Notes under the pieces: model-generated | What the model was told of the DNA's origin: nothing | Databases searched by the model: none | What the model saw: only the letters and a program-made list of their open reading frames with translations | Part shown: positions 18,940-63,003 of the stretch, piece after piece | Numbering within the stretch: the first letter of the stretch is position 1 | How the letters are laid out: each line of letters opens with the position of its first letter | Translations under genes and position numbers: made by a program | DNA from: Mizuhopecten yessoensis | Lineage: Eukaryota | Assembly: GCF_002113885.1 (NCBI RefSeq) | Contig: NW_018406089.1 | Location: 586,447-650,446 of the forward strand | Direction: 5' to 3' | Length of the DNA: 64,000 nucleotides

Positions 18940-20910
18940 AATACTATGTTGACGCTATGGTTAATTGTATATACTATGTTGACGCTATGGTATATTCAAA
19001 TTATTGTATATACTATGTTGACGCTGTGGTATGTTGTATGCTATGTTGACGTTGTGGTATATTGTATTTACAATGTTGACGCTGTGGTATATTGTGCACT
19101 ATGCTGACGCTATGGTATATTGTATATACTATGTTGACGCTGTGTGGTATTTTGTATACTATGTTGACGCTGTAGTATATTGTATTTACTATGTTGACGC
19201 TGTGTGGTATATTGTATATACTATGTTGATGCCGTAGTATATTGTATACTATGTTGACGCTATGGTATATTGTATATACTATGTTGAGGCTGTAGTATAT
19301 TGTATATACTATGTTGACGCTGTAGTATATTGTATTTACTATGTTGGCGCTGTGGTATATTAATAGAATCTTTCAACCCCTTGGGGTGAGATAGGAGAAT
19401 CTCAACCCGAGGGGGAGGATTCTTAGGTTGCCAAACACGAGGCTTTGCCGAGTGTTTGGCAACTAAAGAATATTTCCCCGAGGGTTGAGATTCCACTATC
19501 TCACCCACAAGGGGGTGAATGATTCTTTTTCTCTTACCCTGTTCTTTCATTGTGTATCATATGCACAATGTAATGATAACGTTACATGCTAAATTCAGGG
19601 TTGACGTGACGTTGATGGATTGTTGACGTGACGTCATGCCATTGTTAGGAATAGGGGAATCCCCCCGTCTCAACCCTAGGGTGAGACAAGGAAATCTTAC
19701 ACCGGTAAAAATGCGGATACACCTGTCCAGGGTAAGAGAATGTATATACCTTAATGACGCTATCGTATATTGTATATACTATGTTGACACTGTGGTATAT
19801 TGTATACTATGTTGACGCTGTGATACATATTATAGTATATTGATACTGTTTTGACGCGGTGGTATATTGTATTTACTATATTGACGCTGTGGGATATTGT
19901 ATATACTATGTTGACGCTGTGGTATATTGTATATACTATGTTGATGGCATGGTATATTGATATTATATGTTGACATTTTGGTATATTGCATATACTATTT
20001 TGACGCTGTGGTATATTGTATACTATGTTGACGCTATGGTATATTGTATTTACTATGTTGACGATGTGGTATATTTTGTACTATTTTGACGCTGTGGTAT
20101 ATTGTACACTTTGTTGACGCTGTGGTATATTATATACTATGTTGACGCTATGGTATATTGTATTTACTATGTTGACGATGTGGTATATTTTGTACTATTT
20201 TGACGCTGTGATATATTGTACACTTTGTTGACGCTGTGGTATATTATATACTATGTTGACGCTATGATATATTGTATTTACTATGTTGACGCTGTGGTAT
20301 ATTGTGCACTATGTTGACGCTATGGTATATTGTATTTACTATGTTGACGCTGTGGTATACTGTGCACTATGTTGACGCTATAGTATATTGTATATACTAT
20401 GTTGATGCTGTAGTATATTGTATACTATGTTGACGCTATGGTATATTGTATACTATGTTGACGCTATGGTATATTGTATATGCTATGTTGACGCTATGGT
20501 ATATTGTATATACTATGTTGACGCTGTAGTATATTGTATATACTATGTTGAGGCTGTAGTATATTGTATATACTATGTTGATGCTGTAGTATATTGTATA
20601 TACTATGTTGACGCTATGGTATATTGTATATACTACGTGATGCTGTAGTATATTGTATACTATGTTGACGCTATGGTATATTGTATACTATGTTGACGCT
20701 ATGGTATATTGTATATGCTATGTTGACGCTATGGTATATTGTATATACTATGTTGACGCTATGGTATATTGTATATACTACGTGATGCTGTAGTATATTG
20801 TATACTATGTTGACGCTATGGTATATTGTATATACTATGTTGACGCTATGGTATATTGTATATACTATGTTGACGCTATGGTATATTGTATATACTATGT
20901 GAACGCTAAT
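18940..20910. repeat. Minisatellite, 28/30-bp unit CTATGTTGACGCT(G/A)TGGTATATTGTATA(TA), split by a 380-bp insertion
   Basis: Directly visible tandem array in pseudo-PNP intron 2. Confidence 0.97.
19361..19740. mobile_element. Non-autonomous fold-back DNA element (Crypton-like) inserted in the minisatellite
   Basis: ~160-bp hairpin at 19365-19526 centred on GGC-TTT-GCC; second inverted repeat TTCTCTTACCCTG (19529-19541) / CAGGGTAAGAGAA (19728-19740). Removing the insert restores the repeat sequence GTATAT|TGTATA with no TSD. Confidence 0.75.
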
Positions 20911-21804: not shown

Positions 21805-22821
21805 GTGTAAATACGGCTTTAACTCACCATTAGTGCGGTTAACTGTACAAACCATCAGGCTAACAAATTGATCGGAGTTCATTGTATCCATATATAGTTA
21901 AATAATTTATTTTTCTTAAAAACCATTTATTAACACAGATAAATTCACAAAAAAATATTAAATGACCTGGAAAGATGGATCAATTTGTTGTATTTTTATT
22001 GGTATAATTATGGCCTTTTCAATTGATTTGCTTTTTAATATGAAACCAAACTATGCATAATTTAAAAAGTATAAATGATTGGACATTCGATGAAACCTTA
22101 GACATAAAATATAAACATACAAACCTTTTTTGTTATCGACAGTTTGTATTTTGTGTCATTATGCTAACAAATAACGGACATGTAATTGTTTCCAAAGGAA
22201 TATTAATTTACTATTGACAGTTTTTGGCAGAATTTCGCTGAAAACGTATTCTGTCACTTGGGTGAATATACATGAATGTGCTTGTAATATTAAACAGAAA
22301 ATAATTAATTTTTCTAATTCTTGCACATTTCATTAAAAACATATTTCATTCTGTACTAAAAGAAAGTTTCAAAATGCGCAACATCTCCTGGGCTGTAATC
22401 TCATGACAATTTTCTTTTGTCAGCACTTACGAGAGTATACATTGTTTGTTCGCTATGACAAAGATAAAATAATGTTCCCCTCGCAACTTTTCAGCATTAT
22501 GGTTTAATTCGTTACCAGTTCGGCTTGACTTCAACTCATTCCCTAATATTGTCAATAGTTAAAGATAAAAAAAGAAAGAAATACACTCATATCTACACAC
22601 AAAACCCACTGGACAAGGAACAAAAGGAACTTAGGAGACAAAAAACAAACATTTCATGACTTAATACTTCCAAAAAGGTTTTTTTCAAACTCAGGTGCTG
22701 CGAAACATATTAGATGACCAGTCTAGAGCCCTCAATGTACAAATCTATTACTAATTTTTCGACTTTAGTTCAACGTAGATAAAAGCTACTCATTAAGAAA
22801 GAAAATTCACACGTCAGATGT

Positions 22822-25290
22822 AGATCAAGTATCAGTTAATCCATCCAGTGGATACTTTTACGTGTTAACTAATCCACCAAGCGTCACATGTAATTCAAGT
22901 ATCAGTGAATCCACCCAGTGGATACGTTTACGTGTTAGCTAATCCACCAAGCGTCACATGTAATTCAAGTATCAGTGAATCCTCCAAGTGGATACTTTTA
23001 CTTGTTAGCTAATCCACCAAGCGTCACATGTAATTAAAGTATCAGTGAATCCACCCAGTCGATACATTTACGTGTTAGCTAATCCATCAAGCGTCACATG
23101 TAATTAAAGTATCAGTGAATCCTCCCAGTGGATACGTTTACGAGTTAGCTAATCCCCCAAGCGTCACATATAATTCAAATATCAGTGAATCAACCCAGTG
23201 GATACGTTTACGAGATAATTTACACTGTAGATAAATAAAATCTACAATGTAGATAAATATAGTCCACAATGTAGATAAATATAATCCACACTGTCGATAA
23301 AGATAATTCACAATGTAGATAAATGTAATCCACAATGTAGATAAAGATAATTGACACTGTTGATAAATATAATACAAATATCAGTGATGCCACCAAGTGG
23401 ATACGTTTACGTGTAAGCTACGTGTTAGCTAATCCACTAAGCGTCACATGTAGTTCATGTATCAGTGTCCCCACCCAGTTGATACTTTTACGTGTTAGCT
23501 AATCCATCAAGCGTCACATGTAATTAAAGTATCAGTGAATACTCCAAGTGGATACTTTTACGTGTTAACTAATCCACCAAGCGGCACATGTAATTCAAGT
23601 ATCCGTGAATCCTCCAAGTGGATCCTTTTACTTGTTAGCTAATCCGGGGGGCGTCACATGTAATTAAAGAATCAGTGAATCCACCCAGTGTATACATTTA
23701 CGTGTTAGCTAATCCCCCAAGCGTCACATATAATTCAAATATCAGTGAATCAACCCAGTGGATACGTTTACGAGATAATTTACACTGTAGATAAATAAAA
23801 TCTACAATGTAGATAAATATAGTCCACAATGTAGATAAATATAAGTTAGCTAATCCACCAAGCGCCACATGTAGTTCAAGTATCCGTGAATCCACCCAGT
23901 GGATCCGTTTACGTGTTAGCTAATCCCCCAAGCGTCACATATAATTCAAATATCAGTGAATCAACCCAGTGGATACGTTTACGAGATAATTTACACTGTA
24001 GATAAATAAAATCTACAATGTAGATAAATATAGTCCACAATGTAGATAAATATAATCCACAATGTAGATAAATATAAGTTAGCTAATCCACCAAGCGCCA
24101 CATGTAGTTCAAGTATCATTTAATCCACCCAGTGGATACGTTACCGTGTTAGTTAAGCCACCAAGCGTCACATGTAGTTAAAGAATCAGTGAATCCACCC
24201 AGTGTATACATTTACGTGTTAGCTAATCCACCAAGCGTCACATGTAGTTCAAGTATCAGTTAATCCACCCAGTGGATACGTTAACGTGTTAGCTAATCCA
24301 CCAAGCGTCACATGTAATTCAAATATCAGTGAATCCATCCAGTGGATACGTTTACGTGTAAGCTAATCCACCAAGCGTCACATGTAGTTAAAGTATCAGT
24401 GAATCCACCCAGTGGATACATATACGTGTTAGCTAATCCACCAAGCGTCACATGTAGTTCAAGTATCCGTGAATCCACCCAGTGGATACGTTTACGTGTT
24501 AGCTAATCCACCCAGCGTCACATTTAGTTAAAGTATCAGTGAATCCACCCAGTGGATACGTTTACGAGATAATTTACACTGTAGATAAATAAAATCTACA
24601 ATGTAGATAAATATAGTCCACAATGTAGATAAATATAATCCACACTGTAGATAAAGAAAATTAACACTGTTGATAAAACTAATCCACAATGTAGATAAAG
24701 ATAATTGACTCTGTTGATAAATATAATCCACAATGTAGATAAAGATAATCCACAATGTAGATAAATATAATCTACACTGTAGATAATGAAAATTTACACT
24801 GTTGATAAAACTAATCCACAATGTAGATAAAGATAATTGACACTGTTGATAAATATAATCCACAATGTAGATAAAGATAATCCACAATGTAGATAAATAT
24901 AATCCACAATGTAGATAAATATAATCCACACTGTCGATAAAGATAATCCACAATGTAGATAAATATAATCCACACCGTCGATTAAGATAATTCACAATGT
25001 AGATAAATGTAATCCACAATGTAGATAAAGATAATTGACACTGTTGATAAATATAATCCACAATGTAGATAAAGATAATCCACAATGTAGATAAATATAA
25101 TCCACAATGTAGATAAACATAATCCACAATGTAGATAAATATAATCCACACTGTCGATAAAGATAATCCACAATGTAGATAAATATAATCCGCACTGTCG
25201 ATAAAGATAATTCACAATGTAGATAAAGATAATCCACAATGTCGATAAATATAATCCACACTGTCGACAAAGATAATTCACATTGTATAT
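22822..25290. repeat. Compound satellite of interleaved 70-bp units and 22-bp units (AATCCACAATGTAGATAAATAT)
   Basis: 70-bp period visible (CGTGTT at 22861 and 22931). 22-bp blocks at ~23213-23373, 23775-23843, 23985-24077 and 24568-25290. Confidence 0.95.
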
Positions 25291-26337
25291 AAATGTTTAA
25301 CCATGCATGCGAACCGTATCATATAATGCTTAAACAAATTACAATCTAATTAAAAAACAGATATGAATTTATCACGTATGCCATTAGCTTCAGACGTAGT
25401 GCATGATGAAGATCTGTATTTTAATCAGATTGGAACAGGTTATATAGGCATGTCATCCAATCCTATTTTGTTTATCTTTACAATTTGTTGAAAGGAAAAT
25501 AGAACTTCCTTACGATAAAGGAACTATGAGAAGAATTTAATGGAAATGCTGGAAAATTCGTAGGAAACGAAACTACACGCAATCAGGATCATGAAGCTGA
25601 TGGGCGTGAAAGTTCTATTTATCACCAATACAGCTGGTGGTATAAATCAGGAATATGACAAAGGGGACATCATGATCATCAAGATCAGATTTTCCTCCCT
25701 GGATTTGCTGGACAAAGTCCTCTCTATGGACAAAATGACGATAGTTGAGAAGAAATGAAACCAAAACGCTTTTTAGGGCGGTAACAAAATGAAATTAAAA
25801 CGCTTGTCAGGGCATTGACAAATATATATACCAAATTATTAAATTAAAGCATATGATAGTGTTTTGCTATAATGCAGAACGATGCACATCACATAAAACT
25901 TTCAAAATATCTTAACTTTGATTTTTATTGATTGATGGATAAAATCTATATTCGACTTTTTGTATATATATATATTTATATGAGGCCACATAGTCTGCAG
26001 ATTATTTTACGGGAATTTAACCATAGTAATCTTTTTTTTTTCTTTTTTTTTCTCCCCTCTTATTATGAAAATCGATTTGAAATCAAATAATCAGTTTTGT
26101 CTTTAACTTTGGTAAGAATCGCATTTGAAATGTGCAACAATGTCCTAGCACTGCACTCATTTCTCCTCGTTGTTCTCCACGAAAGACCATCTAACTCACA
26201 AGATTACCTCTTTCACAGCCAAAAACTTGCAGCCACTGTAAACGAGGTTTAAATTCACATACCTGCACACAATCAAACAATATTACATTTTGAAATTCCT
26301 TTACTTTTAAGCATCCGATTGTCGGTGAAACAGTTTT

Positions 26338-28529: not shown

Positions 28530-30595
28530 GTGACGCCAGTTAAAGAGAGCTATTCAGTACATTGTCGCCAGTTAAAGAGAAACATTCCAAAAAGGGTCCA
28601 AGTTAAAGAGAAACACTCAATAGTTTGTCGCCAGTTGAAGAAAATTATTCAGTACACTGTCGCCAGTTAAAGAGAAACACTCCAAAAAGGGTCCAAACTA
28701 AAGAGAAATACTCAATAGTTTGTCGCCAGTTGAAGAGAAACATATTAAACCTTGTCGCCAATTGAAAAGAACTATTAAATGCATTGTCGCCGATTAAAGA
28801 GAAACATTTAATACGTTATCACCAATTAAAGAGAAATATTCAAAACACTGTCGCCAGTTAAAGAGAAACACTAATTACCGGGTTGCCATTTCGGGATAGC
28901 TTTTCAATACGTTGTTGCCAGTAAGAGAGAAACATTCAATACGTTGTCGCCAGTTAGAGAGAAACATTCAATACGTTGTCGCCAGTTAGAGAGAAACATT
29001 CAATACGTTGTCGCCAGTTATAGAGAAACATTCGAAAGTTGTCGCCAGTTAGAGAGAAAAGAGAAACTTTCAATACATGGTCGCCATTTCGAGAGAAACA
29101 TTCAATACATGGTCGCTATTTAGAGAGAAACATTCACTACATGGTCGCCATTTAGAGAGAAGCATTCACTACATGGTCGCTATTTAGAGAGAATAATTCA
29201 CTACATGGTCGCCATTTTGAGAGAAACATTCACTACATGGTCGCGAGTTAGAGAGAAACATTCAATACGTTGTCGCCAGTTAGAGAGAAACATTCAATAC
29301 GTTGTCGCCAGTTAGAGAGAAACATTCAATACGTTGTCGCCAGTTATAGAGAAACATTCGAAAGTTGTCGCCAGTTAGAGAGAAAAGAGAAACTTTCAAT
29401 ACATGGTCGCCATTTCGAGAGAAACATTCAATACATGGTCGCCATTTAGAGAGAAACATTCAATACATGGTCGCCATTTCGAGAGAAACATTCAATACAT
29501 GGTCGCCATTTAGAGAGAAACATTCAATACATGGTCGCTATTTAGAGAGAAACATTCACTACATGGTCGCCATTTTGAGAGAAACATTCACTACATGGTC
29601 GCTATTTAGAGAGAATCATTCACTACATGGTCGCCATTTTGAGAGAAACATTCAATACATGGTCGCCATTTAGAGAGAAACATTCACTACATGGTCGCTA
29701 TTTAGAGAGAAACATTCACTACATGGTCGCCATTTAGAGAGAAGCATTCACTACATGGTCGCTATTTAGAGAGAATAATTCACTACATGGTCGCCATTTT
29801 GAGAGAAACATTCACTACATGGTCGCGAGTTAGAGAGAAACATTCAATACGTTGTCGCCAGTTAGAGAGAAACATTCAATACGTTGTCGCCAGTTAGAGA
29901 GAAACATTCAATACGTTGTCGCCAGTTATAGAGAAACATTCGAAAGTTGTCGCCAGTTAGAGAGAAAAGAGAAACTTTCAATACATGGTCGCCATTTCGA
30001 GAGAAACATTCAATACATGGTCGCCATTTAGAGAGAAACATTCAATACATGGTCGCCATTTCGAGAGAAACATTCAATACATGGTCGCTATTTAGAGAGA
30101 AACATTCACTACATGGTCGCCATTTTGAGAGAAACATTCACTACATGGTCGCTATTTAGAGAGAAACATTCAAAAGTTGTCGCCAGTTAGAGAGAAAAGA
30201 GAAACTTTCAATACATGGTCGCCATTTCGAGAGAAACATTCAATACATGGTCGCCATTTCGAGAGAAACATTCACTACATGGTCGCTATTTAGAGAGAAA
30301 CATTCACTACATGGTCGCCATTTAGAGAGAAGCATTCACTACATGGTCGCTATTTAGAGAGAATAATTCACTACATGGTCGCCATTTTGAGAGAAACATT
30401 CACTACATGGTCGCGAGTTAGAGAGAAACATTCACTTCAGGGTCGCCAGTTAGAGAGAAACATTCAATACATGGTCGCCATTTAGAGAGAAACAGTTAAT
30501 ACATGGTCGCCAGTTAAACTCAAACATCTAATACTGAAACCTCCAATACAGGGTTGTCAGTTAAAGAGAACTTTTTATACATTGTTGCCAGTTGA
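28530..30595. repeat. Minisatellite, 32-bp unit AGAGAGAAACATTCA(A/C)TACATGGTCGCCATTT, about 60 copies, with higher-order blocks
   Basis: Directly visible. Homogeneous centre, diverged flanks; a marker variant (AAAGTTGTCGCCAGTTAGAGAGAAAAGAGAAACTTTC) recurs near 29035, 29361, 29943 and 30173. Confidence 0.97.
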
Positions 30596-41762: not shown

Positions 41763-43137
41763 AATATACCTGACCCACTGTAGGTAAACCTTACCCCACG
41801 TACCATTATAACCTTCTAATACATTTCTAGGGTACTATATACCTGTCCCATTGTAGGTAAACCGTACCCCACGAACCACTATAATCTCCTAATACACCCC
41901 TAGGGTACGTTATACCTGATCCACGGTAGGTAAGCCGTACCCCAGGTACCACTATAATCTCCTAATACACCCCTAGGGTACGTTATACCTGATCCACGGT
42001 AGGTAAGCCGTACCCCAGGTACCACTATAATCTCCTAATACACCCCTAGGGTACGTTATACCTGATCCACGGTAGGTAAGCCGTACCCCAGGTACCACTA
42101 TAATCTCCTAATACATCACTAGGGTACTATATACATGACCCACTTTAGGTAAACCTTACCCCACGTACCACTATAATCTCCTGATACATCCCTAGGGTAC
42201 GTTATACCTGATCCACTGTAGGTCAACCGTACCCCACGTAGCACTATAACCTCCTAATACATCGCTAGGGTACTATATACCTGACCAACTGTAGGTAAAC
42301 CGTACCCCACGAACCACTATAATCTCCTAATACACCCCTAGGGTACGTTATACCTGATCCACGGTAGGTAAGCCGTACCCCAGGTACCACTATAATCTCC
42401 TAATACACCCCTAGGGTACGTTATACCTGATCCACGGTAGGTAAGCCGTACCCCAGGTACCACTATAATCTCCTAATACACCCCTAGGGTACGTTATACC
42501 TGATCCACTGTAGGTCAACCGTACCCCACGTAGCACTATAACCTCCTAATACACCCCTAGGGTACGTTATACCTGATCCACTGTAGGTAAACCCTACCCC
42601 AGGTACCACTATAATCTCCTAATACATCACTAGGGTACTATATACATGACCCACTATAGGTAAACCTTACCCCACGTACCATTATATCCTTCTAATACAT
42701 CCCTAGGGTAAGGTATACCTGATCCACTGTAGGTAAACCCTACCCCAGGTACCACTATAATCTCCTAATACATCCCTAGGGAACGTTATACCTGATCCAC
42801 TGTAGGTCAACCGTACCCCACGTAGCACTATAACCTCCTAATACACCCCTAGGGTACGTTATACCTGATCCACGGTAGGTAAGCCGTACCCCAGGTACCA
42901 CTATAATCTCCTAATACATCCCTAGTGTACGTTATACCTGATCCACTGTAGGTAAACCGGACCCCACGTACCACTATAATCTCCTAATACATCCCTAGTG
43001 TACGTTATACCTGATCCACGGTAGGTAAGCCGTACCCCAGGTACCACTATAATCTCCTAATACATCCCTAGGGTACTATATACCTGACCCACTGTAGGTA
43101 AACCATGCCCCCCGTACCACTATAACCACCTAATACA
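41763..43137. repeat. Minisatellite, 73-bp unit, about 19 copies, in CIMIP1-like intron 1
   Basis: Unit TATACCTGATCCAC(G/T)GTAGGTAAGCCGTACCCCAGGTACCACTATAATCTCCTAATACACCCCTAGGGTACGT; period 73 (ATAATC at 41881 and 41954). Confidence 0.97.
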
Positions 43138-47071: not shown

Positions 47072-48906
47072 CGGACGCTATCTTACTAACATGGACTCTG
47101 CCGTATTGTGTTTCCAATAAACCATGCATTTATTATAAGGGTATGCCATTCACTCTCTCCCGTTAGCGCTCTTTATTTGCTTAGGCAAATGACACTTTGT
47201 ATGTAGTGAGTGTTATAAATAAAGGTAATTTACATACTACGAGCGTTCCAATCTAAATCGATTTCCTGAACATATAACTAGATAATACACCTGGAAGTAC
47301 AGGTAGTGAGCTTGTCTGGCAGGCTGTACATTACCCGTAGCTTACGTATATACTTCACTGACAAACAGTAGCACGTTCAAATAATTAAATAATTAGAAGG
47401 AACGACCAACTAACCTTAAATCTATGTCGGATATATGAGAGAGCGAAAAAAGTTAAATAAAAGAATAGCGTCTAGGTTCTTGTGTAACAGCAACTGAAAA
47501 CCTGTGTAATGATTAGGAAAACAGTAATGGTTGGAGCAAAGGTAAGTTTCTTTTTGAAAAGTATGTAGTTCTGAAGAAAATACTTATAAAATTAATTCCA
47601 TGTTTTTTCCCATACTCATTTTTATTTTTAATTAATTTTATATATTTATTATTATTTTACTAGCTATTTTTACATCGATGTTATACATGAAAGAGTGTTT
47701 GTTGTAATGATATATGACGTCATATTTATCACTAATCATGACAGCATGCACGCGCTATGAGAGGACAAAACGTCTGCCATCTGTGTATTGTTTGTTTTTC
47801 GAAGCGAGTGAAGATGAATTGCAATCGATGTCATACATGTTAAACACATGAAGTATAGGGAGATAACTCGTGTAGTTATTACAATTTATTCAAGTCAAAT
47901 ATGTTTTACCCTTGCATATCTGGTTTTAAGTATGATAGAAAAGAATATTACGACTTCAAAATGTATGGAAAAACGTTTAAATTATGAGAGAAACTCCAAG
48001 GCAATGTCCGGGGAAAGAACACACCTGATGTATCCTAATGCGTGTCATAAAAGGCAACTAAAATGAGGCCCAATGCAGAATCGGTTTTTTTCTAAGGGAA
48101 CAATGGAGAAACCACAATTGAGCTGCTTCTACCATTACAACATTTGGGATCTTGATATGTTTTCTCTTTACTTCCTGAAAACCTTTTGGTTTCCTTATGC
48201 CTTGCTTGGCAATACCCCACGTTTGGCCTTAATGTCAAGCGTTCACCAAAGTTAAACTCGACATAGGCACTGAGGTCATGTTGATGGCATAGCCTCCTAT
48301 TACACACTAATGGGTGTGGCAAGTTGAAGAATAAAACCTCGAAAACTTTTGCAAATAATTTATATCAATCAAATTTAAGAGTGCGATAGAAAAAAATCCG
48401 CTAAAAGCCGCAAATGACCGTAGCTTTCCGACTTAACATCACTGATGTAGCTTAATCATATATTGGTTTCTTTCTGCGCTCCACTCAACAGAACCAAAAT
48501 AACAACGCATAGATTTTTTAATAATTTATTAAAAACAATATGAAGCAACAACAACAAATACATTAAACTCAATAAAATATAACAATTCTCCACACACACA
48601 AAATCAACATACATGTGGCTTCACTACGTACTACATGTCAAGTTACCAGCCATGATGTTCCATCAGTGTAAATAAACTAATATGGTTAAATAAAACAGTA
48701 AATATAATAATTTATAAAAAATACGTTTGCGCAACATTAAGGCGCCACTAATCTATATACAAGATGATATTAAATAGCAAATGTTTTGCTAAATTGCATC
48801 ATACTATTAAACTTAACAATACGAATACTGTCACTTTTACCAAAGAATTAGCTATCTAAGTCCGTGCTTTTACAAATGAGTTTTAAAACACTAGCATATC
48901 GATCTC

Positions 48907-50850
48907 TCAGTACACTTCCTCAACTGTTGGACCTGTACCTGGCCCTCCCCGTGTCTCCTGACCACAGTTCCCGTAGGAGGCCCCACTAGTATTACCCTGT
49001 GGGGAACCCCCGTGGAGTTTGGTCATTATAGGTGAACACAGTTTCTGGAATTCCTGTAGTTTATATTCGTATTCCTCCACATCAGCCGTGGTGTTACTGT
49101 CCAGCCACTTCAGGTTGTCCTCACATTCCTGACACACAGTTGATTTGTCCTCCGACGAGAGTTTGTCACCAGAATTTTCTATCGCCTGTTTGACACTGAA
49201 AATGTAGTTTTCAAGCTGGTTCCTGGCAGAAACTCTTTTTCTCTGTTTCTCATCCTCGTCTTTGTATTTTTCCGCGTCGGACACCATTTTATCAATGTCC
49301 TCTTTACTCAGACGTCCCTTATCGTTTGTAATTGTGATTTTGTTGGATTTCCCTGTACTCTTGTCCTCCGCCGAAACGTTGAGAATTCCATTAGCATCAA
49401 TGTCAAATTGCACTTCGATCTGCGGAACACCCCGAGGTGCAGGAGGGATGCCGTTGAGTTCGAAGCGTCCCAGTTGGTTGTTGTCCTTTGTCATAACTCG
49501 TTCTCCCTCGAATACTTGGATACCGACACCAGGCTGGTTATCAGAATACGTAGTAAATGTCTGTGATGTTTTTGTGGGGATTCTAGTATTCCTTTCGATC
49601 AGTTTGGTCATCACACCTCCGGCCGTTTCTATTCCGAGAGATAAGGGAGCCACGTCCACGAGAAGAACATCCTTGATGACGTTACTACTGTCCCCTGTAA
49701 GCACGGCGGCCTGAACTGCGGCACCGTACGCTACAGCTTCATCAGGGTTGATGGACTTGTTCAGCGGTTTTCCGTTCATGAAATCTTCGAGCATCTTTTG
49801 TACCTTTGGTATACGTGTAGATCCGCCAACCAGCACGATTTCGTGGATTTTCGATTTGTCCATCTTTGCATCACGAAGTGCCTTTTCCACGGGCTCTAAT
49901 GTAGAACGGAATAGGTCGGCACACAAGTCCTCAAATCTGGCTCTCGTGAGCTTACTGTAAAAGTCAATGCCCTCAAACAGGGAATCAATTTCAAGGCTTG
50001 CTTCACTGCTGCTCGAAAGGGCTCGTTTTGCACGTTCACATTCGGTGCGAAGTCTTCTCAAAGCCCTGCTGTTCTTACTCAAGTCTTTACCATATTTCCG
50101 TTTAAACTCCTGTACAAAATGATTGACTATTCTGTTGTCGAAATCCTCCCCACCTAAGTGTGTGTCACCAGCTGTAGCTCTCACCTCGAATATTGAACCC
50201 TCGTCGATAGTCAGAATGGACACATCAAATGTTCCTCCACCAAGATCAAAGATTAGAACGTTTTTCTCTCCTTTCAAGTTCTTTTCCAGTCCATAAGCCA
50301 GCGCAGCAGCCGTCGGTTCATTGACGATTCTGAGGACGTTAAGTCCGGCGATCATCCCAGCATCCTTTGTTGCCTGTCTTTGGGAGTCATTGAAATAGGC
50401 TGGCACTGTGATCACAGCATCCTTGACCTTTTGACCCAAGAAAGCCTCAGCCGTCTCCTTCATTTTAGTAAGAACCATGGAACTGATCTCCTCTGGTGTG
50501 AACTGTTTTGTGGTTCCATTGTAGTCTACCTGAATATTTGGTTTACCCGCGTTGTTGACGACCCTAAATGGCCAATGCTTCACGTCCGACTGGACATGAG
50601 GGTCATCGTATTTCCGTCCGATCAACCGTTTTGCATCGAAAATGGTATTCTGTGGGTTCATGGCCACTTGACCCTTGGCAGCGTCCCCGATTAATCTCTC
50701 TGAGTCTGTGAAGGCCACATAACTAGGCGTGGTCCTGTTTCCCTGGTCGTTGGCAATAATCTCCACCTTCCCATGTTGGAATACTCCGACACAGGAATAC
50801 GTCGTACCAAGGTCTATACCAATAGCTGGAGCTTTACGTGAGCTTGACAT
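48907..50850 (-). CDS. HSP70: Inducible cytosolic heat shock protein 70 (intronless), copy A, 647 aa
   Basis: Full ORF with [22 protein letters not shown] and [14 protein letters not shown] signatures; ends GPTVEEVY. Confidence 0.98.
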
Positions 50851-51030
50851 GTCTTATGATTGTGAAACTGTCAAAGCGAAAGTAGATATAGCACTAGTTC
50901 GTTTATACTAGTCCGCCCGCTTTGTGCTGGATATATGTACACAGGTGTATACAGATACGTCCCTTCTGTTACTTCCACGTAGGTGTCTGACAACTTTTCG
51001 GATTCTGACCACAACTTGTGTGCGCCATGG

Positions 51031-51117
51031 TTATATACAACTTTTCGATCATTTCCTGAATTATCTAGAAAATCTAGAACTTTCTGGTGATTGGATCAAT
51101 CTAGAAACATCCCGAAT
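51031..51117 (-). promoter_or_regulatory. HSP70 copy A promoter: TATA box (51031-51037) and heat shock elements
   Basis: TATATAA on the minus strand ~180 bp upstream of ATG, followed by nGAAn/nTTCn arrays (TTCCTGAATTATCTAGAAAATCTAGAACTTTCT; ATCTAGAAACATCCCGAA). Confidence 0.85.
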
Positions 51118-52936
51118 GAATATAGGTCAGCGGTCATCTGGGGCTCATCAAGGGGACATGCTATGGCAAATTCTGATATTGTGATATAAAGCATTTGACT
51201 ACAAAAATCTACATTTATGTTTACGCACATGTTTTACCAGGCGCGTTATTGTGAGAAAATATAAGTGCCATAACGGCATTACTGCTGACATGATGAATGT
51301 CATAGTTCTGATGAATTAAAAAAAAATAAGGTGTTATTAAAATGTTGTTAATATAATTATAATATTTTCCCTGTTTGTTTTTTTATAGTTATTAAGATGA
51401 AAGTTTTGTTGTTCATAAAATAACAATACAAAAATGTTATATTAATATTTGTTTTAGTTTGTACTAATTAATTGTTAAGTTTTATCGTCATCGGTATACA
51501 AAATATATTGGGTTTTTTATTATTAAGACAATTATAAAACATCATTCAAACATCATTTTGATTGGGATTTAATATATATTAAAACTCATGTGATAAGTTA
51601 ACTACAGTAGATAATATAAGTGTCTTCATCAAGCACTCGGGTCCGGTGTTCACGTACATGAAGTTTGATATTATAAAGATGATTTGTATACTGATCTTAT
51701 TATTGAAACACCAACATTACTGTTTCATTTAACGTAACTTATAAGTCAATAAAATCTAGTAACTAACTTGTAAGCAATCAACTAACTTATAAGTAAGTAA
51801 ATAAATACTGACTACAGCAAAACTAAAACCATGTATCGTGTAATGTCTTGTCTACAATTTATGTTGTTTTACAGTATTTTCCCGTCATATATTATAGTTT
51901 GGAGATTCTTTTGTCATTTCCTGACCGTTGGTTTCTTATCTATACTTTTTTATGTTAATACAGTGTATGATTATACCCTGATAGTACTTATTAGTTCTAA
52001 TAACACTGTAACAGTAGTATGAATCTTTATCTTTAATTACTACACAGAAAACACTACTATTGTGTAATATAACATATTATCAAGTTAAAAAAGCGTCATT
52101 GTAACATTTGTAAGTAAATTGTTAGTTAATGTAGAGTATCAGATGTAGTAGATATAAAACCAGAGGTCAAGACATTACAAATAAATGTTTAAAATATAAC
52201 AACAGTGCGATACCTAAACCTACGGTATATGTATAAGCAGGGGATTAGATTGCTATCTTAGTCCGTGATATAAGTAAACAAATGATACATCGTATTAATT
52301 TTAGTCAAGCTGGATTAATATATACTATTGCAGTATAACAAATGACGTACTAATCTGTTTCTTAGGATTAATAAATAACCATAATTATAATATGTCATGT
52401 TGAATTGGGAATTGAAAATATACCGACAATGCTAAATAGTTGGGCATCTTTATTGCAAAAAAATGAAAAACCGGAGTCGAGTGTTAAACTACATGTATTT
52501 GATATGGTATCTTATCAACTGGAATTTTAAAGTCCCATTTCAAAATGATGTTAAAATGTTAAAAATAGTAGATATACCGATGACGATATTACCTGTGAAT
52601 TAACAAGTACTAACGTGACAATTACATCAACATCACTATAGTTACATAGTTATTACATGTGTAGCCGATACATATGTTTTGATATTATATGATGTGATAA
52701 CATGAAATCACACATTTTTATCGGATTGATTTTGCTAATTAATTCATCGGAACTATATTATACATCATGTAAACAGTAACGAAGTTAACACTGTGATTTT
52801 CTCACAGTAACCCTGGAATAACTTATACATAGACATAAATGTAGATTTTAGTAGTCAAATGATTTATATCACTTTATCAGAATTTTCCATAGCATGTCCC
52901 CTTGATGAGCCCCATATTAGCGCTGACCTAAATTCA

Positions 52937-53022
52937 TTCGGGATGTTTCTAGATTGATCCAATCACCAGAAAGTTCTAGATTTTCTAGATAATTCAGGAA
53001 ATTATCGAAAAGTTGTATATAA
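52937..53022 (+). promoter_or_regulatory. HSP70 copy B promoter: heat shock elements and TATA box (53016-53022)
   Basis: TTCGGGATGTTTCTAGA and AGAAAGTTCTAGATTTTCTAGATAATTCAGGAA, then TATATAA; mirror image of the copy A promoter. Confidence 0.85.
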
Positions 53023-53204
53023 CCATGGCGCACACAAGTTGTGGTCAGAATCCGAAAAGTTGTCAGACAATCCTACGTGGAAGTAACAGAAGGGACGTAT
53101 CTGTATACACCTGTGTACATATATCCAGCACAAAGCGGGCGGACTAGTATAAACGAACTAGTGCTATATCTACTTTCGCTTTGACAGTTTCACAATCATA
53201 AGAC

Positions 53205-55145
53205 ATGTCAAGCTCACGTAAAGCTCCAGCTATTGGTATAGACCTTGGTACGACGTATTCCTGTGTCGGAGTTTTCCAACATGGGAAGGTGGAGATTATT
53301 GCCAACGACCAGGGAAACAGGACCACGCCTAGTTATGTGGCCTTCACAGACTCAGAGAGATTAATCGGGGACGCTGCCAAGGGTCAAGTGGCAATGAACC
53401 CACAGAATACCATTTTCGATGCAAAACGGTTGATCGGACGGAAATACGATGACCCTCATGTCCAGTCGGACGTGAAGCATTGGCCGTTTAGGGTCGTCAA
53501 CAACACAGGTAAACCAAAGATTCAGGTAGACTGTAATGGAACCACAAAACAGTTCACACCAGAGGAAATCAGTTCCATGGTTCTTACTAAAATGAAGGAG
53601 ACGGCTGAGGCTTTCTTGGGTCAAAAGGTCAAGGATGCTGTGATCACAGTGCCAGCCTATTTCAATGACTCCCAAAGACAGGCAACAAAGGATGCTGGGA
53701 TGATCGCCGGACTTAACGTCCTCAGAATCGTCAATGAACCGACGGCTGCTGCGCTGGCTTATGGACTGGAAAAGAACTTGAAAGGAGAGAAAAACGTTCT
53801 AATCTTTGATCTTGGTGGAGGAACATTTGATGTGTCCATTCTGACTATCGACGAGGGTTCAATATTCGAGGTGAGAGCTACAGCTGGTGATACACACTTA
53901 GGTGGGGAAGATTTCGACAACAGAATAGTCAATCATTTTGTACAGGAGTTCAAACGGAAATATGGTAAAGACTTGAGTAAGAACAGCAGGGCTTTGAGAA
54001 GACTTCGCACCGCATGTGAACGTGCAAAACGAACCCTTTCGAGCAGCAGTGAAGCAAGCCTTGAAATTGATTCCCTGTTTGAGGGCATTGACTTTTACAG
54101 TAAGCTCACGAGAGCCAGATTTGAGGACTTGTGTGCCGACCTATTCCGTTCAACATTAGAGCCCGTGGAAAAGGCACTTCGTGATGCAAAGATGGACAAA
54201 TCGAAAATCCACGAAATCGTGCTGGTTGGCGGATCTACACGTATACCAAAGGTACAAAAGATGCTCGAAGATTTCATGAACGGAAGACCGCTGAACAAGT
54301 CCATCAACCCTGATGAAGCTGTAGCGTACGGTGCCGCAGTTCAGGCCGCCGTGCTTACAGGCGACAGTAGTGACGTCATCAAGGATGTTCTTCTCGTGGA
54401 CGTGGCTCCCTTATCTCTCGGAATAGAAACGGCCGGAGGTGTGATGACCAAACTGATCGAAAGGAATACTAGAATCCCCACAAAAACATCACAGACATTT
54501 ACTACGTATTCTGATAACCAGCCTGGTGTCGGTATCCAAGTATTCGAGGGAGAACGAGTTATGACAAAGGACAACAACCAACTGGGACGCTTCGAACTCA
54601 ACGGCATCCCTCCTGCACCTCGGGGTGTTCCACAGATCGAAGTGCAATTTGACATTGATGCTAATGGAATTCTCAACGTTTCGGCGGAGGACAAGAGTAC
54701 GGGGAAATCCAACAAAATCACAATTACAAACGATAAGGGACGTCTGAGTAAAGAGGACATTGATAAAATGGTGTCCGACGCGGAAAAATACAAAGACGAG
54801 GATGAGAAACAAAGAAAAAGAGTTTCTGCCAGGAACCAGCTTGAAAACTACATTTTCAGTGTCAAACAGGCGATAGAAAATTCTGGTGACAAACTCTCGA
54901 CGGAGGACAAATCAACTGTGTGTCAGGGATGTGAGGACAACCTGAAGTGGCTGGACAGTAACACCACGGCCGATGTGGAGGAATACGAATATAAACTACA
55001 GGAATTCCAAAAACTGTGTTCACCTATAATGACCAAACTCCACGGGGGTTCCCCACAGGGTAATACTAGTGGGGCCTCCAACGGGAACTGTGGCCAGGAG
55101 ACACAAGGAGGGTCAGGTACAGGTCCAACAGTTGAGGAAGTGTAG
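53205..55145 (+). CDS. HSP70: Inducible cytosolic heat shock protein 70 (intronless), copy B, 646 aa
   Basis: Full ORF nearly identical to copy A; ends GPTVEEV followed by TAG TGA. Confidence 0.98.
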
Positions 55146-56249
55146 TGAGAGATCGATAGTTGCTAGTGTTTTAAAACGTATTTGTAAAAGTGACAGTATT
55201 CGTATTGTTAAGTTTAACAGCATTATGCAATTTAGCAAAGCATTTGCTACTTAATATCATCTTGTATATATAGATTAGTGTCGCCTTAATGTTGCGCACA
55301 CGTATTTTTTTTATAAATTATTATATTTACTGTTTTATTTAACCATATTAGTTTATTTACACTGATGAAACATCATGGCTGGTAACTTGACATGTAGTAC
55401 GTAGTGAAGCCACATGTATGTTGATTTTGTGTGTGTGGAGAATTGTTATATTTTATTGAGTTTAATGTATTCGTTGTTGTTGCTTCATATTGTTAAATTA
55501 TTAAAAAATCAATGCGTTGTTATTTTGGCCTGTTGTGTGAAACGCAGAAAGAAACCAATATATGATTAAGCTACATCAGTGATGTAAAGTCGGAAAGCTA
55601 CGGTCATTTGCGACTTTGTTACTTCAAAGAACAGACCTTAGCACTATAATTAACTTATTTTCAGTGTAATTAAGTGATATCACCAATCCGTTAAAATAAT
55701 ATAGTTTAAAATGGAATTTAAAGTCAAGCGGCGTCCCATACACCCTGTTATCTTGCCTAGGATGGTAGATGGTAATTTCCAATATAAATATAACTTCATT
55801 TTTTGATTCATTACATTATATCATGAGTCATTGGAGCATAGGCAACAAGGCATAGACTGATCGGTTTATCGTCTACACTCACTGACGAAGTCGGTGTCCG
55901 GTCGACGTGAGGGGGTAAGTTGTCGCTTACCAGGCCCTCGGAGATTCGAAATGTCCTAGGTCCATCCAGGTCTCGCTCCAAGGTCGGACAGCTCCTGAGA
56001 TGCGGACAGTGTGTCGCAGCGGCAGCGTTCCACGGAACGACGTCCTTCGTGTAGTCCGCGCTGCCCTCACATGAGAGGACTAACCCCCATCCCTGAGGAC
56101 TAACCCCCATCCCTATATGCTTATATAGTGTCATTATGGTCCGTTGTCCTTTCCCACCATTACTATCTTATTCTATGTTTACTTTCAGCCAATCTCAACC
56201 GCAAATCTCAGTCAGAGACGTATTATATGTAATATTAGTATGTAATATT

Positions 56250-59524: not shown

Positions 59525-61046
59525 ATGGAGAACTTTTCTCATCAGCTTGAAAATGGTGTTACCGTGTCAAACGAGGAATTAACGTACTTGAGAGGGGTGA
59601 TCTCGAACCGGGCTTCGTCTGCCGTCGCTGACGATCTCAAAACTAAACAAAGTGTTTGTATGGATCGCAGGCAGGTTATAAACAACCAGGGCCAGTTTCA
59701 GTTGTCGGAAAACAAGACTGTCATTCGATCTGGATTTCAGAGTCAGGGCTTTCAGGGATTAGAAAATACACAAAAATTACCTAAGCCGTTCGAAATTCCA
59801 TTTGGAGGGTCAATACATAACGGCGGAATGAAAGTGAATCCTCAAAGTCAGTTACCCACTACCGTTATAGGAAACGGGGTTGTGGAAACCGAGCGGAGTA
59901 TTGTGATCGGGGGTACGTCATACCCTGCACCTTCCAAGGAACAGCTTCTCCAAAACGCAATGCAACATTTTTCTGGATCTAGCCACTATATATTGAGACA
60001 GCAGGGATCTAATTATTCCAGTCCTAGGTCAAGTATGGGTAGTGGTGGTGATTCAAAAAATTCAAGTCCAAGAACTAGTCTTATCAATCCCCCGCCCCCT
60101 CCCCCCTATGATCAACGGTTCATGGGGGGCAGTCCACGGTCAAGTCTAGCCAGTCCAAGGTCAAGTTTAAGTACAACTTCATACGAGTCCAAACCTTCAA
60201 GTCCTCGTACTAGCCTTGCAGGAATGTCTGGAGTGCTGTATGATAAATTTCCAAGTCCGAGGACTAGTTTAGCAATATCACAAGAGAGTCTACAAAATCT
60301 ACAGATGGGAATGCATCCAATGTCAATGCCGCGAAGTAATATCCAGCTTCTGAATGACAGTCGGTTTAATGAAGGGGCTCCCCCTGCTTTTATCTATACT
60401 GATCTTCGCCCGAGATCGTTGCCTTCACATAACAATAGTAGTATTAACATTTCACACTCTCAAACAAACAATGTCAACAGCAATAACAATGTGACTAATA
60501 CTAATCTACTTAATAATCAAATGAATCGGGTTGTGAGCTCTGATAAAAGCTCACCGTCACACTCAGTCCCTCCAGCTTTACCTGCCAGAAAGCCTATTAA
60601 CCAACAGACACAACCCAAACATATAGACTTTGAGAAAACTTTAACAGCTCTCACTCAACAGTTAGAAGAAAATATACGTGTGTCGGCCTCCAGAAAAAAC
60701 TCTTTGGATTCTCAGTCTTCAATTCCGAAGGAGCCTCCCCCGCCCTATCATGGTCCCCACAATACTGAACTGCCTGTGCTACCCCCAAGAAATCCCCGTT
60801 ATGCTAGTCCCAAACCCTCGCCCCAGCCTCAAGTTTTTAGTCAACCATCAAACCTGGGGTCCCTACCCACATCCCCGGCCCACATGGTGCGGACGCCACC
60901 CTCTGCTGCCATCAAGCCGCAGGCCCAGCTGCAGTACCAAGTACCCCAGTCACAACGGGGACTGACCGAGGCAGAGAAAAAGGTTGCAGCACTGACACAG
61001 CAGTTAGAAGATGAGATGGAGAAATCCCCGCAAGGGGAATACTTTG
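59525..61046 (+). CDS. Ajuba/WTIP/LIMD1-family LIM protein, first coding exon (pre-LIM region); gene continues beyond the window
   Basis: Long Pro/Ser-rich ORF with repeated SPR(S/T)S motifs, an NES-like AEKKVAALTQQLEDEME and EYFG immediately before a G|GTAAGT donor, where LIM1 begins in WTIP/LIMD1/Jub. The ORF-track tail KCIKNG is intronic. Confidence 0.82.
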
Positions 61047-63003
61047 GTAAGTGTATAAAAAATGGCTGATAATTTTCACCATTATACATAGTGTTCAAAC
61101 TATAAACACCTCCCTCCCATCTCATCAACTGTATCTTGTTATTAAAGCAAGGGGAAAATGTTGGCTGTTTCTATTCAAATTTTAGAAATGTACAAGACCA
61201 AATAAATTTATTGTTTTACTTATTCATTTACCTAGCTAAATAAAAATCCTCCATGCCTGAAACCTTTTATAGCAATACGTTTAAAAGTTGTGTTGACCAT
61301 TGATGTTCTATTTGGCTAAATACATTGAAGTTAAACTTTCACACTTGTCATGTGTACCATAACAAAGCCTGATTGTCTGCTGATTGATTTTCACCTCTTA
61401 TATTATTTGTTAACACCTGATCATGAGTGTAGAAAATTTGACATGTTAATTTGATTTGTGATCCGGTTCATTTTTATCACCTTAATAAATACATGATGTT
61501 TTACTGTTCATTTTTGTGATGATCAAGTTCACCAAGTACTTGAGGGATTCATCAAAATGTTGTGCATAAATGTTTCACTGATGATGACTTTTTATGTTTG
61601 CTATATATATGTACCTGTATACTATTTCTTACTAATTAATATTAACATGGTTTTATAAGGTTTTATTAAATTGTATAATTTGTGCGTTTTACAATTTTGT
61701 TCAGTCACTTTGCATGCGGGTGAAGTACAAGAAAAGGATAAGCTATGGAAGATTTTATTTTGTTTATAGTGAATTATATCAGCCCTGATAGGACTGTTGA
61801 AAATGAAAGCTTAAGGATTAGTATAACATCAGTGTTGCAAGAATGTACGGCTGGCTTTGCTATTTCATAGTTTCATCTTTTTGCCCTGAATAGAAGAGAT
61901 TTAATACTTTTTATTTTTTTTTGTTTTGACTTTCTAGGACAAAAAGATAAAAGGATGAAAATTATGGTTTGTTTATTCTTATCTTTTTGCTCTGAAAAGA
62001 CGAAGCGACAAAATGACACAAATCTGCATACTGTAGGAATGAATTGTAACAGATGCTGCCAGAATGTAAACTGTTCCAGTTGGATATGTACATGTCTGTT
62101 AAAGGTTAACCTATGCATGAAGCTATCTGTCCTAATTTTAACTGCCAACCCAAGATATTTTATTCCCAGTTAAATTCAGAAATATTGCTCTACATGTAGC
62201 TGGCACTTGGTAAAAAATTATTGAAAAAGTGAAAATACATATCTATACACAGATGCAGCTTTAAACAGATATTTTGATGGGCCTAAGATCAAAAAAATAT
62301 TGAGATTGTTTTAAACAGCAACATGTTTTCTGTTCATGAAATTATGTTTTTGTGTAAATATTGTCTTAAAAAATGTTTGAGGACAGTGACAAATAGTTTT
62401 TTGAAGGCTGTTAGTGTTTTTTTGATGTTAGTGATTGATGGTGAGAGTAATGACAGGATATGTACATGTATATATATGATCATTGCTTTAAAGTCTGATA
62501 AGAGTAACACAAAATTGTATTTGATTTTAGACTAGCATAATGTTAAATTTCACTTACCATTATACTTGTACAGATAACACCTCTAGAAGGCATTTGTCAC
62601 CTATAGATTGTAATCACCTGTTGTTTACTGTACCCGATGACCTCATATACATGTATATGTTGTACTAGAACAGTGTGGTGACCTTTTAGGGTGCTATGGT
62701 TCCTGTGCTGGCCCTTTGTGTGTCACTGAAATGACATGAGGATATATTGTAGTAAATCTGTACAACACAATCACTGAACTTGTATACCCTCAGGTCATTT
62801 ATTCGAGGTAACATGTTAAAAAATAATTACTTTGTGTCACATACTTTTAGGATTCTGTGGAATTTGGATTATGTTTGTCAGGTGAACAAATTTTCACCTT
62901 CCAATTAAAGTTTCGGGTCAATCTCTCATGCTCAAGTTGTGATATTGTTGCACATACAAGTAGCAATGAAATTTAAAGGTAAATTTATTGATGATATATA
63001 TAT

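Follow-up and report, generated by a model that had tools for sequence, protein, structure and literature searches.

Scallop inducible-type Hsp70s that end in tyrosine: a recurrent change at the EEVD terminus predicted to part two classes of co-chaperone

EEVD is taught as the invariant C-terminal mark of cytosolic Hsp70. Two neighbouring Hsp70 genes of the scallop Mizuhopecten yessoensis, located in a 64,000-nucleotide stretch of DNA (the window), depart from it: copy A ends GAG GAA GTG TAC TGA (EEVY-stop) and copy B ends GAG GAA GTG TAG TGA (EEV-stop). They belong to a scallop-wide, likely heat-inducible Hsp70 clade in which the last residue has changed from Asp to Tyr. We give about an even chance to a selected swap, in which the partners with tetratricopeptide repeat (TPR) clamps were dropped and J-protein-driven refolding was kept. 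For the stop of copy B the best reading is damage that is tolerated because the copy is redundant.

Copies A and B form the two arms of an inverted duplication with divergent orientation; the arms match at 97.0% along 2457 bp and at 93.7% along 445 bp. The features of the locus, in window positions, are listed below (X followed by a number denotes a public sequencing run).

48404..51319, minus strand: left arm of the inverted duplication (gene, promoter and 3' UTR)
48841..48873, minus strand: 33-bp 3' UTR segment found in copy A and not in copy B, which tags the TAC-linked 3' form in reads
48907..48912, minus strand: last codon TAC (Tyr647) and stop TGA of copy A; all seven covering runs have C at the corresponding base
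48907..50850, minus strand: copy A, an intronless lineage-A cytosolic Hsp70 of 647 aa ending GPTVEEVY (ORF, profile match, transcribed 3' form in X1, X12 and X13)
51031..51037, minus strand: TATA box of copy A
51052..51117, minus strand: heat-shock element cluster of copy A, with a four-unit element at 51052-51071
51320..52738: unique AT-rich spacer separating the divergent promoters (1419 bp, 26.6% GC)
52739..55617, plus strand: right arm of the inverted duplication
52936..53001, plus strand: heat-shock element cluster of copy B, with a four-unit element at 52982-53001 and more elements at 52968 and 52936
53016..53022, plus strand: TATA box of copy B
53047, plus strand: transcription start, 31 bases from the TATA start; an X1 contig in which the two copies are collapsed has its first base here, preceded by a loose end of 25 letters
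53205..55145, plus strand: copy B, an intronless Hsp70 of 646 aa ending GPTVEEV, with its stop TAG at 55143-55145 (zero-difference contigs over the stop in X1, X3, X5 and X12)
55146..55148, plus strand: ancestral TGA stop of copy B, now the second of a double stop

The 25-letter loose end at 53047 is presumably a template-switch cDNA adapter. Both ORFs are whole and intronless, with Pfam HSP70 scores of 872 bits (copy A) and 870 bits (copy B) against a cut-off of 20.6. The three Hsp70 family signatures and the interdomain linker are intact in both copies (residues 12, 200, 338 and 394). In the alignment to the human protein, residues 6-646 are collinear with HSPA1A 3-640, with a one-residue insertion at residue 219 that corresponds to the extra serine of lineage A in the ATPase domain. 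The EEVD end of cytosolic Hsp70s is absent from both; the tree places the window proteins within EEVD-type Hsp70s, and they are tail variants that are noncanonical on this one feature. Copy A also carries four substitutions at otherwise conserved sites (N105, E270, A277 and N390), two of which are absent from the contigs listed there.

Each copy has a TATA box and a four-unit heat-shock element with one mismatch (at 51052 and 52982), and only three such four-unit elements occur within the 64 kb window. When the 200 bp upstream of copy B were shuffled 1000 times, no shuffle reached the heat-shock element count seen there. The elements lie upstream of the TATA box and start site, which is the layout of a heat-inducible gene, and judging from these promoters both copies are likely heat-inducible. 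The two copies have diverged with a dN/dS of 0.195 (Fisher p 1.3e-5). A first reading made from the sequence alone had described otherwise intact ORFs with heat-shock promoters, which these results bear out, and had asked for the dN/dS given here. It had also spoken of "both inducible HSP70s"; the promoter elements are there, but a further inducible-type Hsp70 paralogue is visible as loose ends in three runs, so copies A and B are not the sole inducible-type Hsp70s of the species.

Eight public runs were examined and the last codon was covered by seven of them (X15, from organism B, is without tail coverage and so has no weight either way). The TAC form is present in all seven covering runs and the TAG stop in five: a contig identical to copy B spans TAG TGA in X1, X3, X5 and X12, and the stop is implied in X4, where C is carried by 20.2 of 34.9 depth at this position. 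X9 and X13 display TAC only, which is no proof that the TAG form is absent, as contigs drop variants, and X9 does have the copy-B-type 3' UTR further on. Reversion to an Asp codon at 55143 was found neither in the full tables of three runs nor among the rows listed for the other four. Both codons are seen across runs of several studies, and both 3' forms occur in the cDNA run X1; both forms are thus transcribed. Judging from contig depths, which do not equal copy number, there may be three types of 3' UTR whose ratios vary.

All nine named scallop proteins of the clade (P0004-P0009 and P0121-P0123, four genera) end in EEVY. When the last 45 residues are removed, these nine and both window proteins still form one clade (FastTree 0.95, SH-aLRT 95), and its sister group consists of scallop paralogues with a final Asp (EELD, DEMD). 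The EEVY end is common to Ylistrum, Pecten, Argopecten and Mizuhopecten and is thus older than the split of these genera, which moves the Tyr codon back from this duplication, around which it had been placed earlier. The proposed order, in which Tyr first replaced Asp and a stop later replaced Tyr in copy B, is correct, EEVY being ancestral for the clade.

Outside scallops, EEVY or EEVF ends were found in cockroaches, termites, a mayfly, one further clade and one butterfly gene; this recurrence in insects lay beyond the view of the sequence-only reading. Among 262 fetched proteins, whose raw counts are enriched because an EEVF protein served as seed of the second search, the last residue is Asp in 199, Tyr in 32, Phe in 19, and Val, His, Leu and Asn in one each, with the motif missing in eight. 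The last residue contributes between 0 and 3.6 bits to the search, a bias that would cost the lists no protein but P0113 (EEVH). None of the 262 ends in Gly, Ala or Glu, though each is one base from Asp. In a metagenome control of 120 loci chosen regardless of their last codon, probably mostly non-animal and mostly other than this inducible lineage, Asp is last at all 107 confirmed Hsp70 ends; 12 unconfirmed loci (7 Asp, 2 Ser, 1 Thr, 1 His and 1 Glu) and one without a stop were set aside.

The tree requires seven changes between Asp and non-Asp ends. Grouping the scallop proteins with those of cockroaches and termites as one clade is rejected by the AU test (p 1.5e-76), as is grouping them with P0082 (p 1.1e-6); a separate origin in the mayfly is borderline (p 0.046). 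Judged from these sequences, the aromatic end arose in cockroaches and termites separately from scallops. Four of six apparent origins outside scallops are aromatic (rough binomial p 0.001-0.017), or three of five (p 0.009-0.058) if the butterfly gene is left out. In the cockroach and termite clade (11 tails), none of 29 linker columns is invariant, yet Tyr or Phe is last in nine. In scallop tails, 5 of 26 linker columns are invariant too, and the retention of Tyr there is therefore weak evidence alone. All 54 substituted tails keep Pro, Val/Ile-5, both Glu and the free carboxylate; since 188 of the 199 Asp-ended tails likewise have the Glu pair and the Pro, conservation of these residues does not set the substituted tails apart. 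Altered or tail-less ends occur within aromatic clades (copy B, P0136/P0262, P0127 and P0151, with EEVL in P0139), and a Zootermopsis EEVD is nested among aromatic-ended proteins.

The choice of folding or degradation is attributed to competition at EEVD, with CHIP/HOP on one side and class B J-proteins on the other, and HOP needs the last Asp. Human peptide scans identify the last Asp as one of the three key positions for CHIP and as a strict requirement of PP5 (PMC8913300). The class B J-protein DnaJB4 requires only the free carboxylate, Pro-7, Val/Ile-5, Glu-4 and Glu-3; the Asp side chain is solvent-exposed and dispensable for it, in contrast to the sequence-only reading, which had taken the last Asp as a contact of class B J-proteins. 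Ala is the only last-position substitution described for DnaJB4; the peptide library kept Asp constant, and neither Tyr nor Phe ends any of the peptides described (PMC8913300). The same study reports that CHIP tolerates Val for Ile at position 5, that Thr-6 phosphorylation near the tail tunes CHIP binding, and that in vitro both CHIP and HOP inhibit refolding by Hsp72 with DnaJB4.

Compared with the IEEVD of human Hsp72/HSPA1A, a tail that both CHIP and DnaJB4 use (Johnson et al. 2022, PMC8913300), copy A keeps Pro-7, a branched residue at 5, Glu-4, Glu-3, Val-2 and the carboxylate, whereas the replaced residue is the one position needed by CHIP and not by DnaJB4. Copy A and the 54 substituted tails hold all known determinants for the class B J-protein domain CTD-I, and copy A retains the Val-2 and Ile/Leu/Val-5 read by TPR domains; the Asp that the carboxylate clamp requires is replaced by Tyr in copy A and by Val in copy B. 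By analogy with the human proteins, EEVY is predicted to keep class B J-protein docking and to block CHIP, PP5 and probably HOP; the loss of CHIP-type TPR binding, which had been proposed from the sequence, is plausible in the light of the peptide scans, and we infer an uncoupling from the HSP90 hand-off via HOP. Such a protein would specialise in refolding and escape both the competition from CHIP and the turnover that CHIP drives, a benefit extrapolated from human proteins. What human cells tune by concentration and Thr-6 phosphorylation (PMC8913300) would in the scallop be fixed in the gene. The refolding-specialist model by itself gives no reason for an aromatic residue.

Copy B represents a recent second step. 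Its TAG places the free carboxylate on Val, with Glu at position 2, Thr at 5 and Gly at 7; the set of J-protein determinants is no longer complete, and with this shift of register the protein likely binds neither partner class. The two ends, earlier treated as like losses, thus differ, since EEVY holds the register and EEV-stop shifts it. Stop read-through, which would restore Tyr in copy B, is rare.

In favour of the selected swap stand, among others, the nine of nine scallop EEVY ends, the separate insect origins, the Tyr or Phe ends kept in cockroach and termite tails with a fully variable linker, the aromatic share of the origins outside scallops, the suppression of refolding by CHIP and HOP, the Asp-only metagenome control and the dN/dS; the altered tails inside aromatic clades and the nested Zootermopsis EEVD were counted against it, as relaxed constraint would produce them too. 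Under relaxed constraint, which we consider unlikely, the TPR partners are no longer needed because the constitutive Hsc70 and other paralogues cover for them, and the aromatic residue has no job: a single base change lets Asp drift to Tyr, after which the tail decays (EEV-stop, frameshifted tails). The transcribed copy B stop in at least five of seven runs, the tail-less forms of the cockroach and termite clade, and an empirical probability near 5 in 26 that Tyr would be retained in scallops all fit this reading, as do the weaker purifying selection described for Lineage A (PMC8423806), the 6 of 11 blood clam B2-type genes reported without EEVD (PMC10939072) and the retention of EEVD by scallop HSPA8 (PMC11750468). 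The absence of Gly, Ala and Glu ends, the exchange of Tyr and Phe while the linker is saturated, and the otherwise intact tail in all substituted proteins argue against it. The gain of a new partner is clearly less probable still. An acidic tail with a free aromatic end resembles the EEY/F of the CAP-Gly ligands alpha-tubulin, EB1 and CLIP-170, and the swap might thereby link inducible Hsp70 with microtubule-end or dynactin proteins or with another reader of aromatic ends. CAP-Gly grooves read the last Tyr or Phe with its carboxylate, upstream acidic residues raise affinity and the preceding residues may vary, as in SLAIN2 (PMC3115796), and the interchange of Tyr and Phe is the same here. However, Val stands between the Glu pair and the terminal Tyr, which makes the tail no exact EEY/F, the protein is unrelated to these ligands, and the likeness is one of four letters. 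The combination of both ideas, a TPR-blind, J-protein-only refoldase with a tubulin-like handle that recruits it to CAP-Gly proteins at microtubule ends or on dynactin, would be an unrecognised functional class of Hsp70 evolved several times in invertebrates, and we regard it as just as improbable.

TPR binding might also persist, if the CHIP and HOP clamps of scallops and cockroaches tolerate the aromatic end or have co-adapted to it, in which case the change would be near-silent. Copy A does retain the carboxylate, Val-2 and a Val-5 of the kind that CHIP accepts, but the importance of the last Asp for CHIP and PP5 makes this very doubtful, and the same clamps still must read the EEVD of scallop HSPA8 and HSP90. 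Phosphorylation of the Tyr after Glu-Glu-Val could conditionally restore the second negative charge for the clamp, and acidic residues ahead of Tyr suit some tyrosine kinases. The known tuning of CHIP by Thr-6 phosphorylation offers a parallel; the Phe ends of 19 fetched proteins, which cannot be phosphorylated, and the far larger size of phospho-Tyr relative to Asp leave such a switch with only a slim chance. An assembly or sequencing artefact, or dead pseudogenes, we consider next to impossible. Two of the four odd substitutions of copy A are unseen in the listed contigs, but nothing at the tail favours an artefact: with both codons in runs of several studies and EEVY orthologues in four genera, it is refuted there, as the sequence-only reading had argued from the letters. 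We found no broken frame, neutral divergence or silence of the kind expected of pseudogenes, but whole ORFs, a dN/dS of 0.195 and both 3' forms in the cDNA run. The proteasome-gating HbYX motif, which has Tyr second last, was rejected as a match, Tyr being last here.

The locus otherwise resembles the metazoan cytosolic Lineage A (bivalve "HSP70 B2 / HSP68-like"; Yu et al. 2021, PMC8423806) in the extra ATPase-domain serine, the intronless ORF, the heat-shock elements and TATA box, the local duplication and the usual Hsp70 signatures. It differs in the Tyr end of copy A and the lost last residue of copy B; EEVD is given there as the cytosolic marker, and an aromatic end goes unmentioned in the accessible sections of that paper. 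The bivalve variants EEMD, DEMD and EELD also depart from EEVD but keep the last Asp. The B2 genes of Tegillarca granosa that lack EEVD are likewise inducible-type; the accessible text of that report (PMC10939072) leaves the replacement unstated and describes no conserved aromatic end. Nor did we find an aromatic Hsp70 end described in the non-subscription literature on scallop, non-EEVD inducible, metazoan-lineage or cockroach/termite Hsp70s. As far as these sources go, departure from EEVD in bivalve inducible-type Hsp70s is already on record, and the conserved aromatic end is what appears new.

A natural, repeatedly evolved change at the position that separates two partner classes is a ready-made separation-of-function variant, and it makes testable what Hsp70 does if only J-proteins dock. 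Annotation based on EEVD misses or mislabels working cytosolic Hsp70s of this kind. There is a possible bearing on the heat tolerance of farmed scallops, in which the copy B stop may be a scorable allele.

Two intronless Hsp70 genes, divergently oriented, form the arms of an inverted duplication (~2.9 kb each), and neither ends in EEVD:

48907-50850, minus strand: copy A, intronless Hsp70, 647 aa, ends GAG GAA GTG TAC TGA (EEVY-stop)
51037: TATA box, copy A side, mirror of the one at 53016
53016: TATA box, copy B side
53205-55148, plus strand: copy B, intronless Hsp70, 646 aa, ends GAG GAA GTG TAG TGA (EEV-stop)

The arms are 97.0% identical over 2457 bp and 93.7% over another 445 bp, are separated by an AT-rich spacer of 1419 bp, and hold the only Hsp70 sequence found in the window. 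Each has a heat-shock element of four units with a single mismatch; the whole 64 kb contains only three such elements, and none of 1000 shuffles of the 200 bp preceding copy B reached the element count found there. The copies differ at 28 codons, with 12 non-synonymous and 18 synonymous changes (dN/dS = 0.195, Fisher p 1.3e-5). K105N, A270E, T277A and D390N are found in copy A and not in copy B, at sites near-invariant in 13 relatives. Those at residues 270 and 277 could be assembly errors or alleles of low frequency, because the listed contigs of four public sequencing runs (X1, X4, X9 and X13) agree with copy B there. Elsewhere in the window, a Pro/Ser/Gln-rich open frame of 514 codons (59525-61069) has no Pfam match or useful Atlas match, and may be one large exon of a longer gene, as a sequence resembling a splice donor lies close to its end. 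A minisatellite with a 22/42-bp unit (7160-9328) produces spurious long open frames in several phases; other tandem arrays lie at 18941-20908, 22812-25294, 28534-30516 and 41765-43137.

Eight of 20 listed public runs were compared with the window; seven, from seven studies, span the last codon (one may be the window's own source), and X15 gave no contig there. The TAC form is present in all seven, contigs identical to copy B across TAG TGA are listed in X1, X3, X5 and X12, and X4 implies the TAG form (C carried by 20.2 of 34.9 depth), so that both codons read from the sequence are confirmed. X9 and X13 show TAC alone at the copy B stop base, and the TAG form may be polymorphic; the contigs show which forms are present, not expression level, copy number or TAG fixation. 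No Asp codon is restored at the last position in the complete tables of three runs or among the rows listed for the other four. In X1, a contig starts 31 bases from the TATA box (53047); the loose end there looks like an adapter added by template switching, which makes X1 a probable cDNA run and implies transcription of both 3' forms (TAC and TAG). Loose ends in X3, X5 and X12 (window 54977 and 55060-55064) reveal another lineage-A paralogue in the same species, which resembles the Mizuhopecten protein P0007 and has 9 differences over 88 aligned bases. At 55188-55336, three 3' UTR types occur in varying proportions across runs, two of them unlike copy B, which implies a third copy or else alleles that segregate.

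Both window proteins exceed the Pfam HSP70 threshold, align along human HSPA1A and have the additional serine that PMC8423806 gives as a mark of metazoan cytosolic Lineage A. Their closest named proteins are scallop Hsp70s, which points to a scallop as the source of the window, and all nine named scallop proteins of the clade end in EEVY (Ylistrum balloti, 4; Pecten maximus, 1; Argopecten irradians, 3; Mizuhopecten yessoensis, 1). These nine and both window proteins form one clade in a FastTree phylogeny of 235 proteins (support 0.95) and in a 49-protein IQ-TREE phylogeny (SH-aLRT 95), both built without the last 45 residues; the sister group consists of scallop paralogues with a final Asp (EELD, DEMD). 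Because the EEVY clade spans four genera and its sister keeps Asp, we infer that Asp changed to Tyr once, in the ancestor of Ylistrum, Pecten, Argopecten and Mizuhopecten, and that Tyr to stop was a recent event in copy B. The order of changes first proposed is thus upheld, whereas the tie between Tyr and the duplication is not, as four genera share EEVY.

Aromatic ends also occur outside scallops: EEVF and EEIF in Periplaneta americana, EEVF in Cryptotermes secundus and the mayfly Ephemera danica, and EEVY in other proteins of the cockroach/termite clade, in one gene of Euphydryas editha and in the protein pair P0082/P0098. Protein searches and cluster look-ups gathered 262 proteins, 254 with a tail motif, whose last residue is Asp in 199, Tyr in 32 and Phe in 19. 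Single proteins end in His, Leu, Asn and Val, the last being copy B, and Gly, Ala and Glu are absent as end residues among the 262. The counts are enriched, since the searches started from Tyr- or Phe-ended proteins and the clusters contain near-identical sequences. EEVH (P0113) and EEVN (P0200), each a single Hsp70 taken as fetched, are the remaining first-base neighbours of the Asp codon. The fetched Blattella and Zootermopsis proteins end in EEVD, Zootermopsis being nested inside the aromatic clade, and the 49-protein tree requires seven changes between Asp and non-Asp. AU tests on groups picked after the first tree was seen reject scallop and cockroach/termite as one clade (p 1.5e-76) and scallop and P0082 as one clade (p 1.1e-6), and are borderline for cockroach/termite and mayfly (p 0.046). 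Without its last residue, the query's scores change by no more than 3.6 bits, and only P0113 would drop from the lists. As a control, metagenome contigs were scanned for a pattern that ignores the last codon, which yielded 120 loci; with 13 unconfirmed or stop-less loci left out, all 107 confirmed Hsp70 ends have a final Asp, in a set that is probably mostly non-animal. An artefact as the source of the tail change was excluded. Four proteins of the cockroach/termite clade (P0136, P0262, P0127 and P0151) have lost the whole tail motif, a loss that looks real in P0136 and P0262 because their identical altered end occurs in two separate collections.

Partner requirements along the human Hsp72 tail come from the scan by Johnson et al. 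2022 (PMC8913300), with position 1 as the last residue. As reported there, the TPR-clamp partner CHIP depends on positions 1, 2 and 5 and on the carboxylate; the class B J-protein DnaJB4 requires both Glu, Pro-7, the carboxylate and position 5, where Val is slightly preferred to Ile, and leaves the position 1 side chain solvent-exposed; both disfavour a polar residue at position 5. In PMC11259706, whose peptide library kept the last Asp constant, this residue is needed by PP5 and dispensable for DnaJB4; both reports speak against the earlier suggestion that it contacts class B J-proteins. GPTVEEVY retains all DnaJB4 determinants, and the residue replaced is the TPR-clamp-specific one. HOP probably depends on the last Asp as well. 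The DnaJB4 determinants are intact in 54 of 54 substituted tails and 188 of 199 Asp-ended tails. The copy B register is Val-1, Glu-2, Glu-3, Val-4, Thr-5, Pro-6, Gly-7, and CHIP-type and DnaJB4-type contacts are both likely lost because a polar Thr at position 5 is disfavoured by both partners. We give about an even chance to the whole reading, that the Tyr swap drops TPR partners and keeps the class B J-protein, to the benefit of refolding and persistence under stress, while copy B loses both; the function of the aromatic tail we infer from human proteins alone.

In six scallop tails the last 8 columns are invariant, but this argues only weakly for selection on the aromatic end, because 5 of 26 linker columns are invariant too. 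The 11 cockroach/termite-clade tails have no invariant column among 29 in the linker; nine of them end in Tyr or Phe, one in Leu and one in Asp. Four of six apparent origins outside scallops are aromatic (p 0.001-0.017 with the prior chance of arriving at Tyr/Phe set roughly at 0.1-0.2; p 0.009-0.058 once the single butterfly gene is excluded). Relaxed constraint on the tail leaves this bias unexplained and we consider it unlikely, although it accounts for decayed tails and fits the tail-less forms within aromatic clades (copy B; P0136/P0262, P0127, P0151), the weaker purifying selection on Lineage A reported in PMC8423806 and the absence of EEVD in 6 of 11 blood-clam B2 genes (PMC10939072). 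The bias would follow from a gained partner of CAP-Gly type, since these domains recognise a free terminal Tyr/Phe after acidic residues and tolerate upstream variation (PMC3115796), but EEVY/F matches that motif in a short and inexact way and such a gain seems rather improbable. TPR clamps tolerant of, or co-adapted to, the aromatic end are slightly more doubtful still, and a phospho-Tyr switch, which breaks down on the Phe-ended proteins, is very improbable.

That inducible-type invertebrate Hsp70s can lack EEVD is already on record in general (e.g. PMC10939072). Our literature searches, which covered openly accessible papers, turned up no account of a conserved or convergent aromatic Hsp70 end; two papers on scallop Hsp70 families (Cheng 2016, Hu 2019) and supplementary alignments may show the motif. 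Such an end would surprise chaperone specialists, and testing is cheap. Tail binding relieves class B J-domain autoinhibition (PMC9346034), refolding by Hsp72 with DnaJB4 depends on tail contact and is suppressed by CHIP and by HOP (PMC8913300), and, after stress, Hsp70 is among the proteins that CHIP degrades (Qian et al. 2006, via PMC8299108); scallops also have an EEVD-bearing Hsc70 (PMC11750468). If Tyr drops the TPR partners and spares the class B J-protein, an inducible EEVY Hsp70 would be drivable by class B J-proteins yet beyond capture by CHIP and likely HOP, and copy B would be left to tail-independent class A J-proteins. The EEVY end would then favour refolding and persistence in stress, with the EEVD-bearing Hsc70 retaining hand-off and triage.
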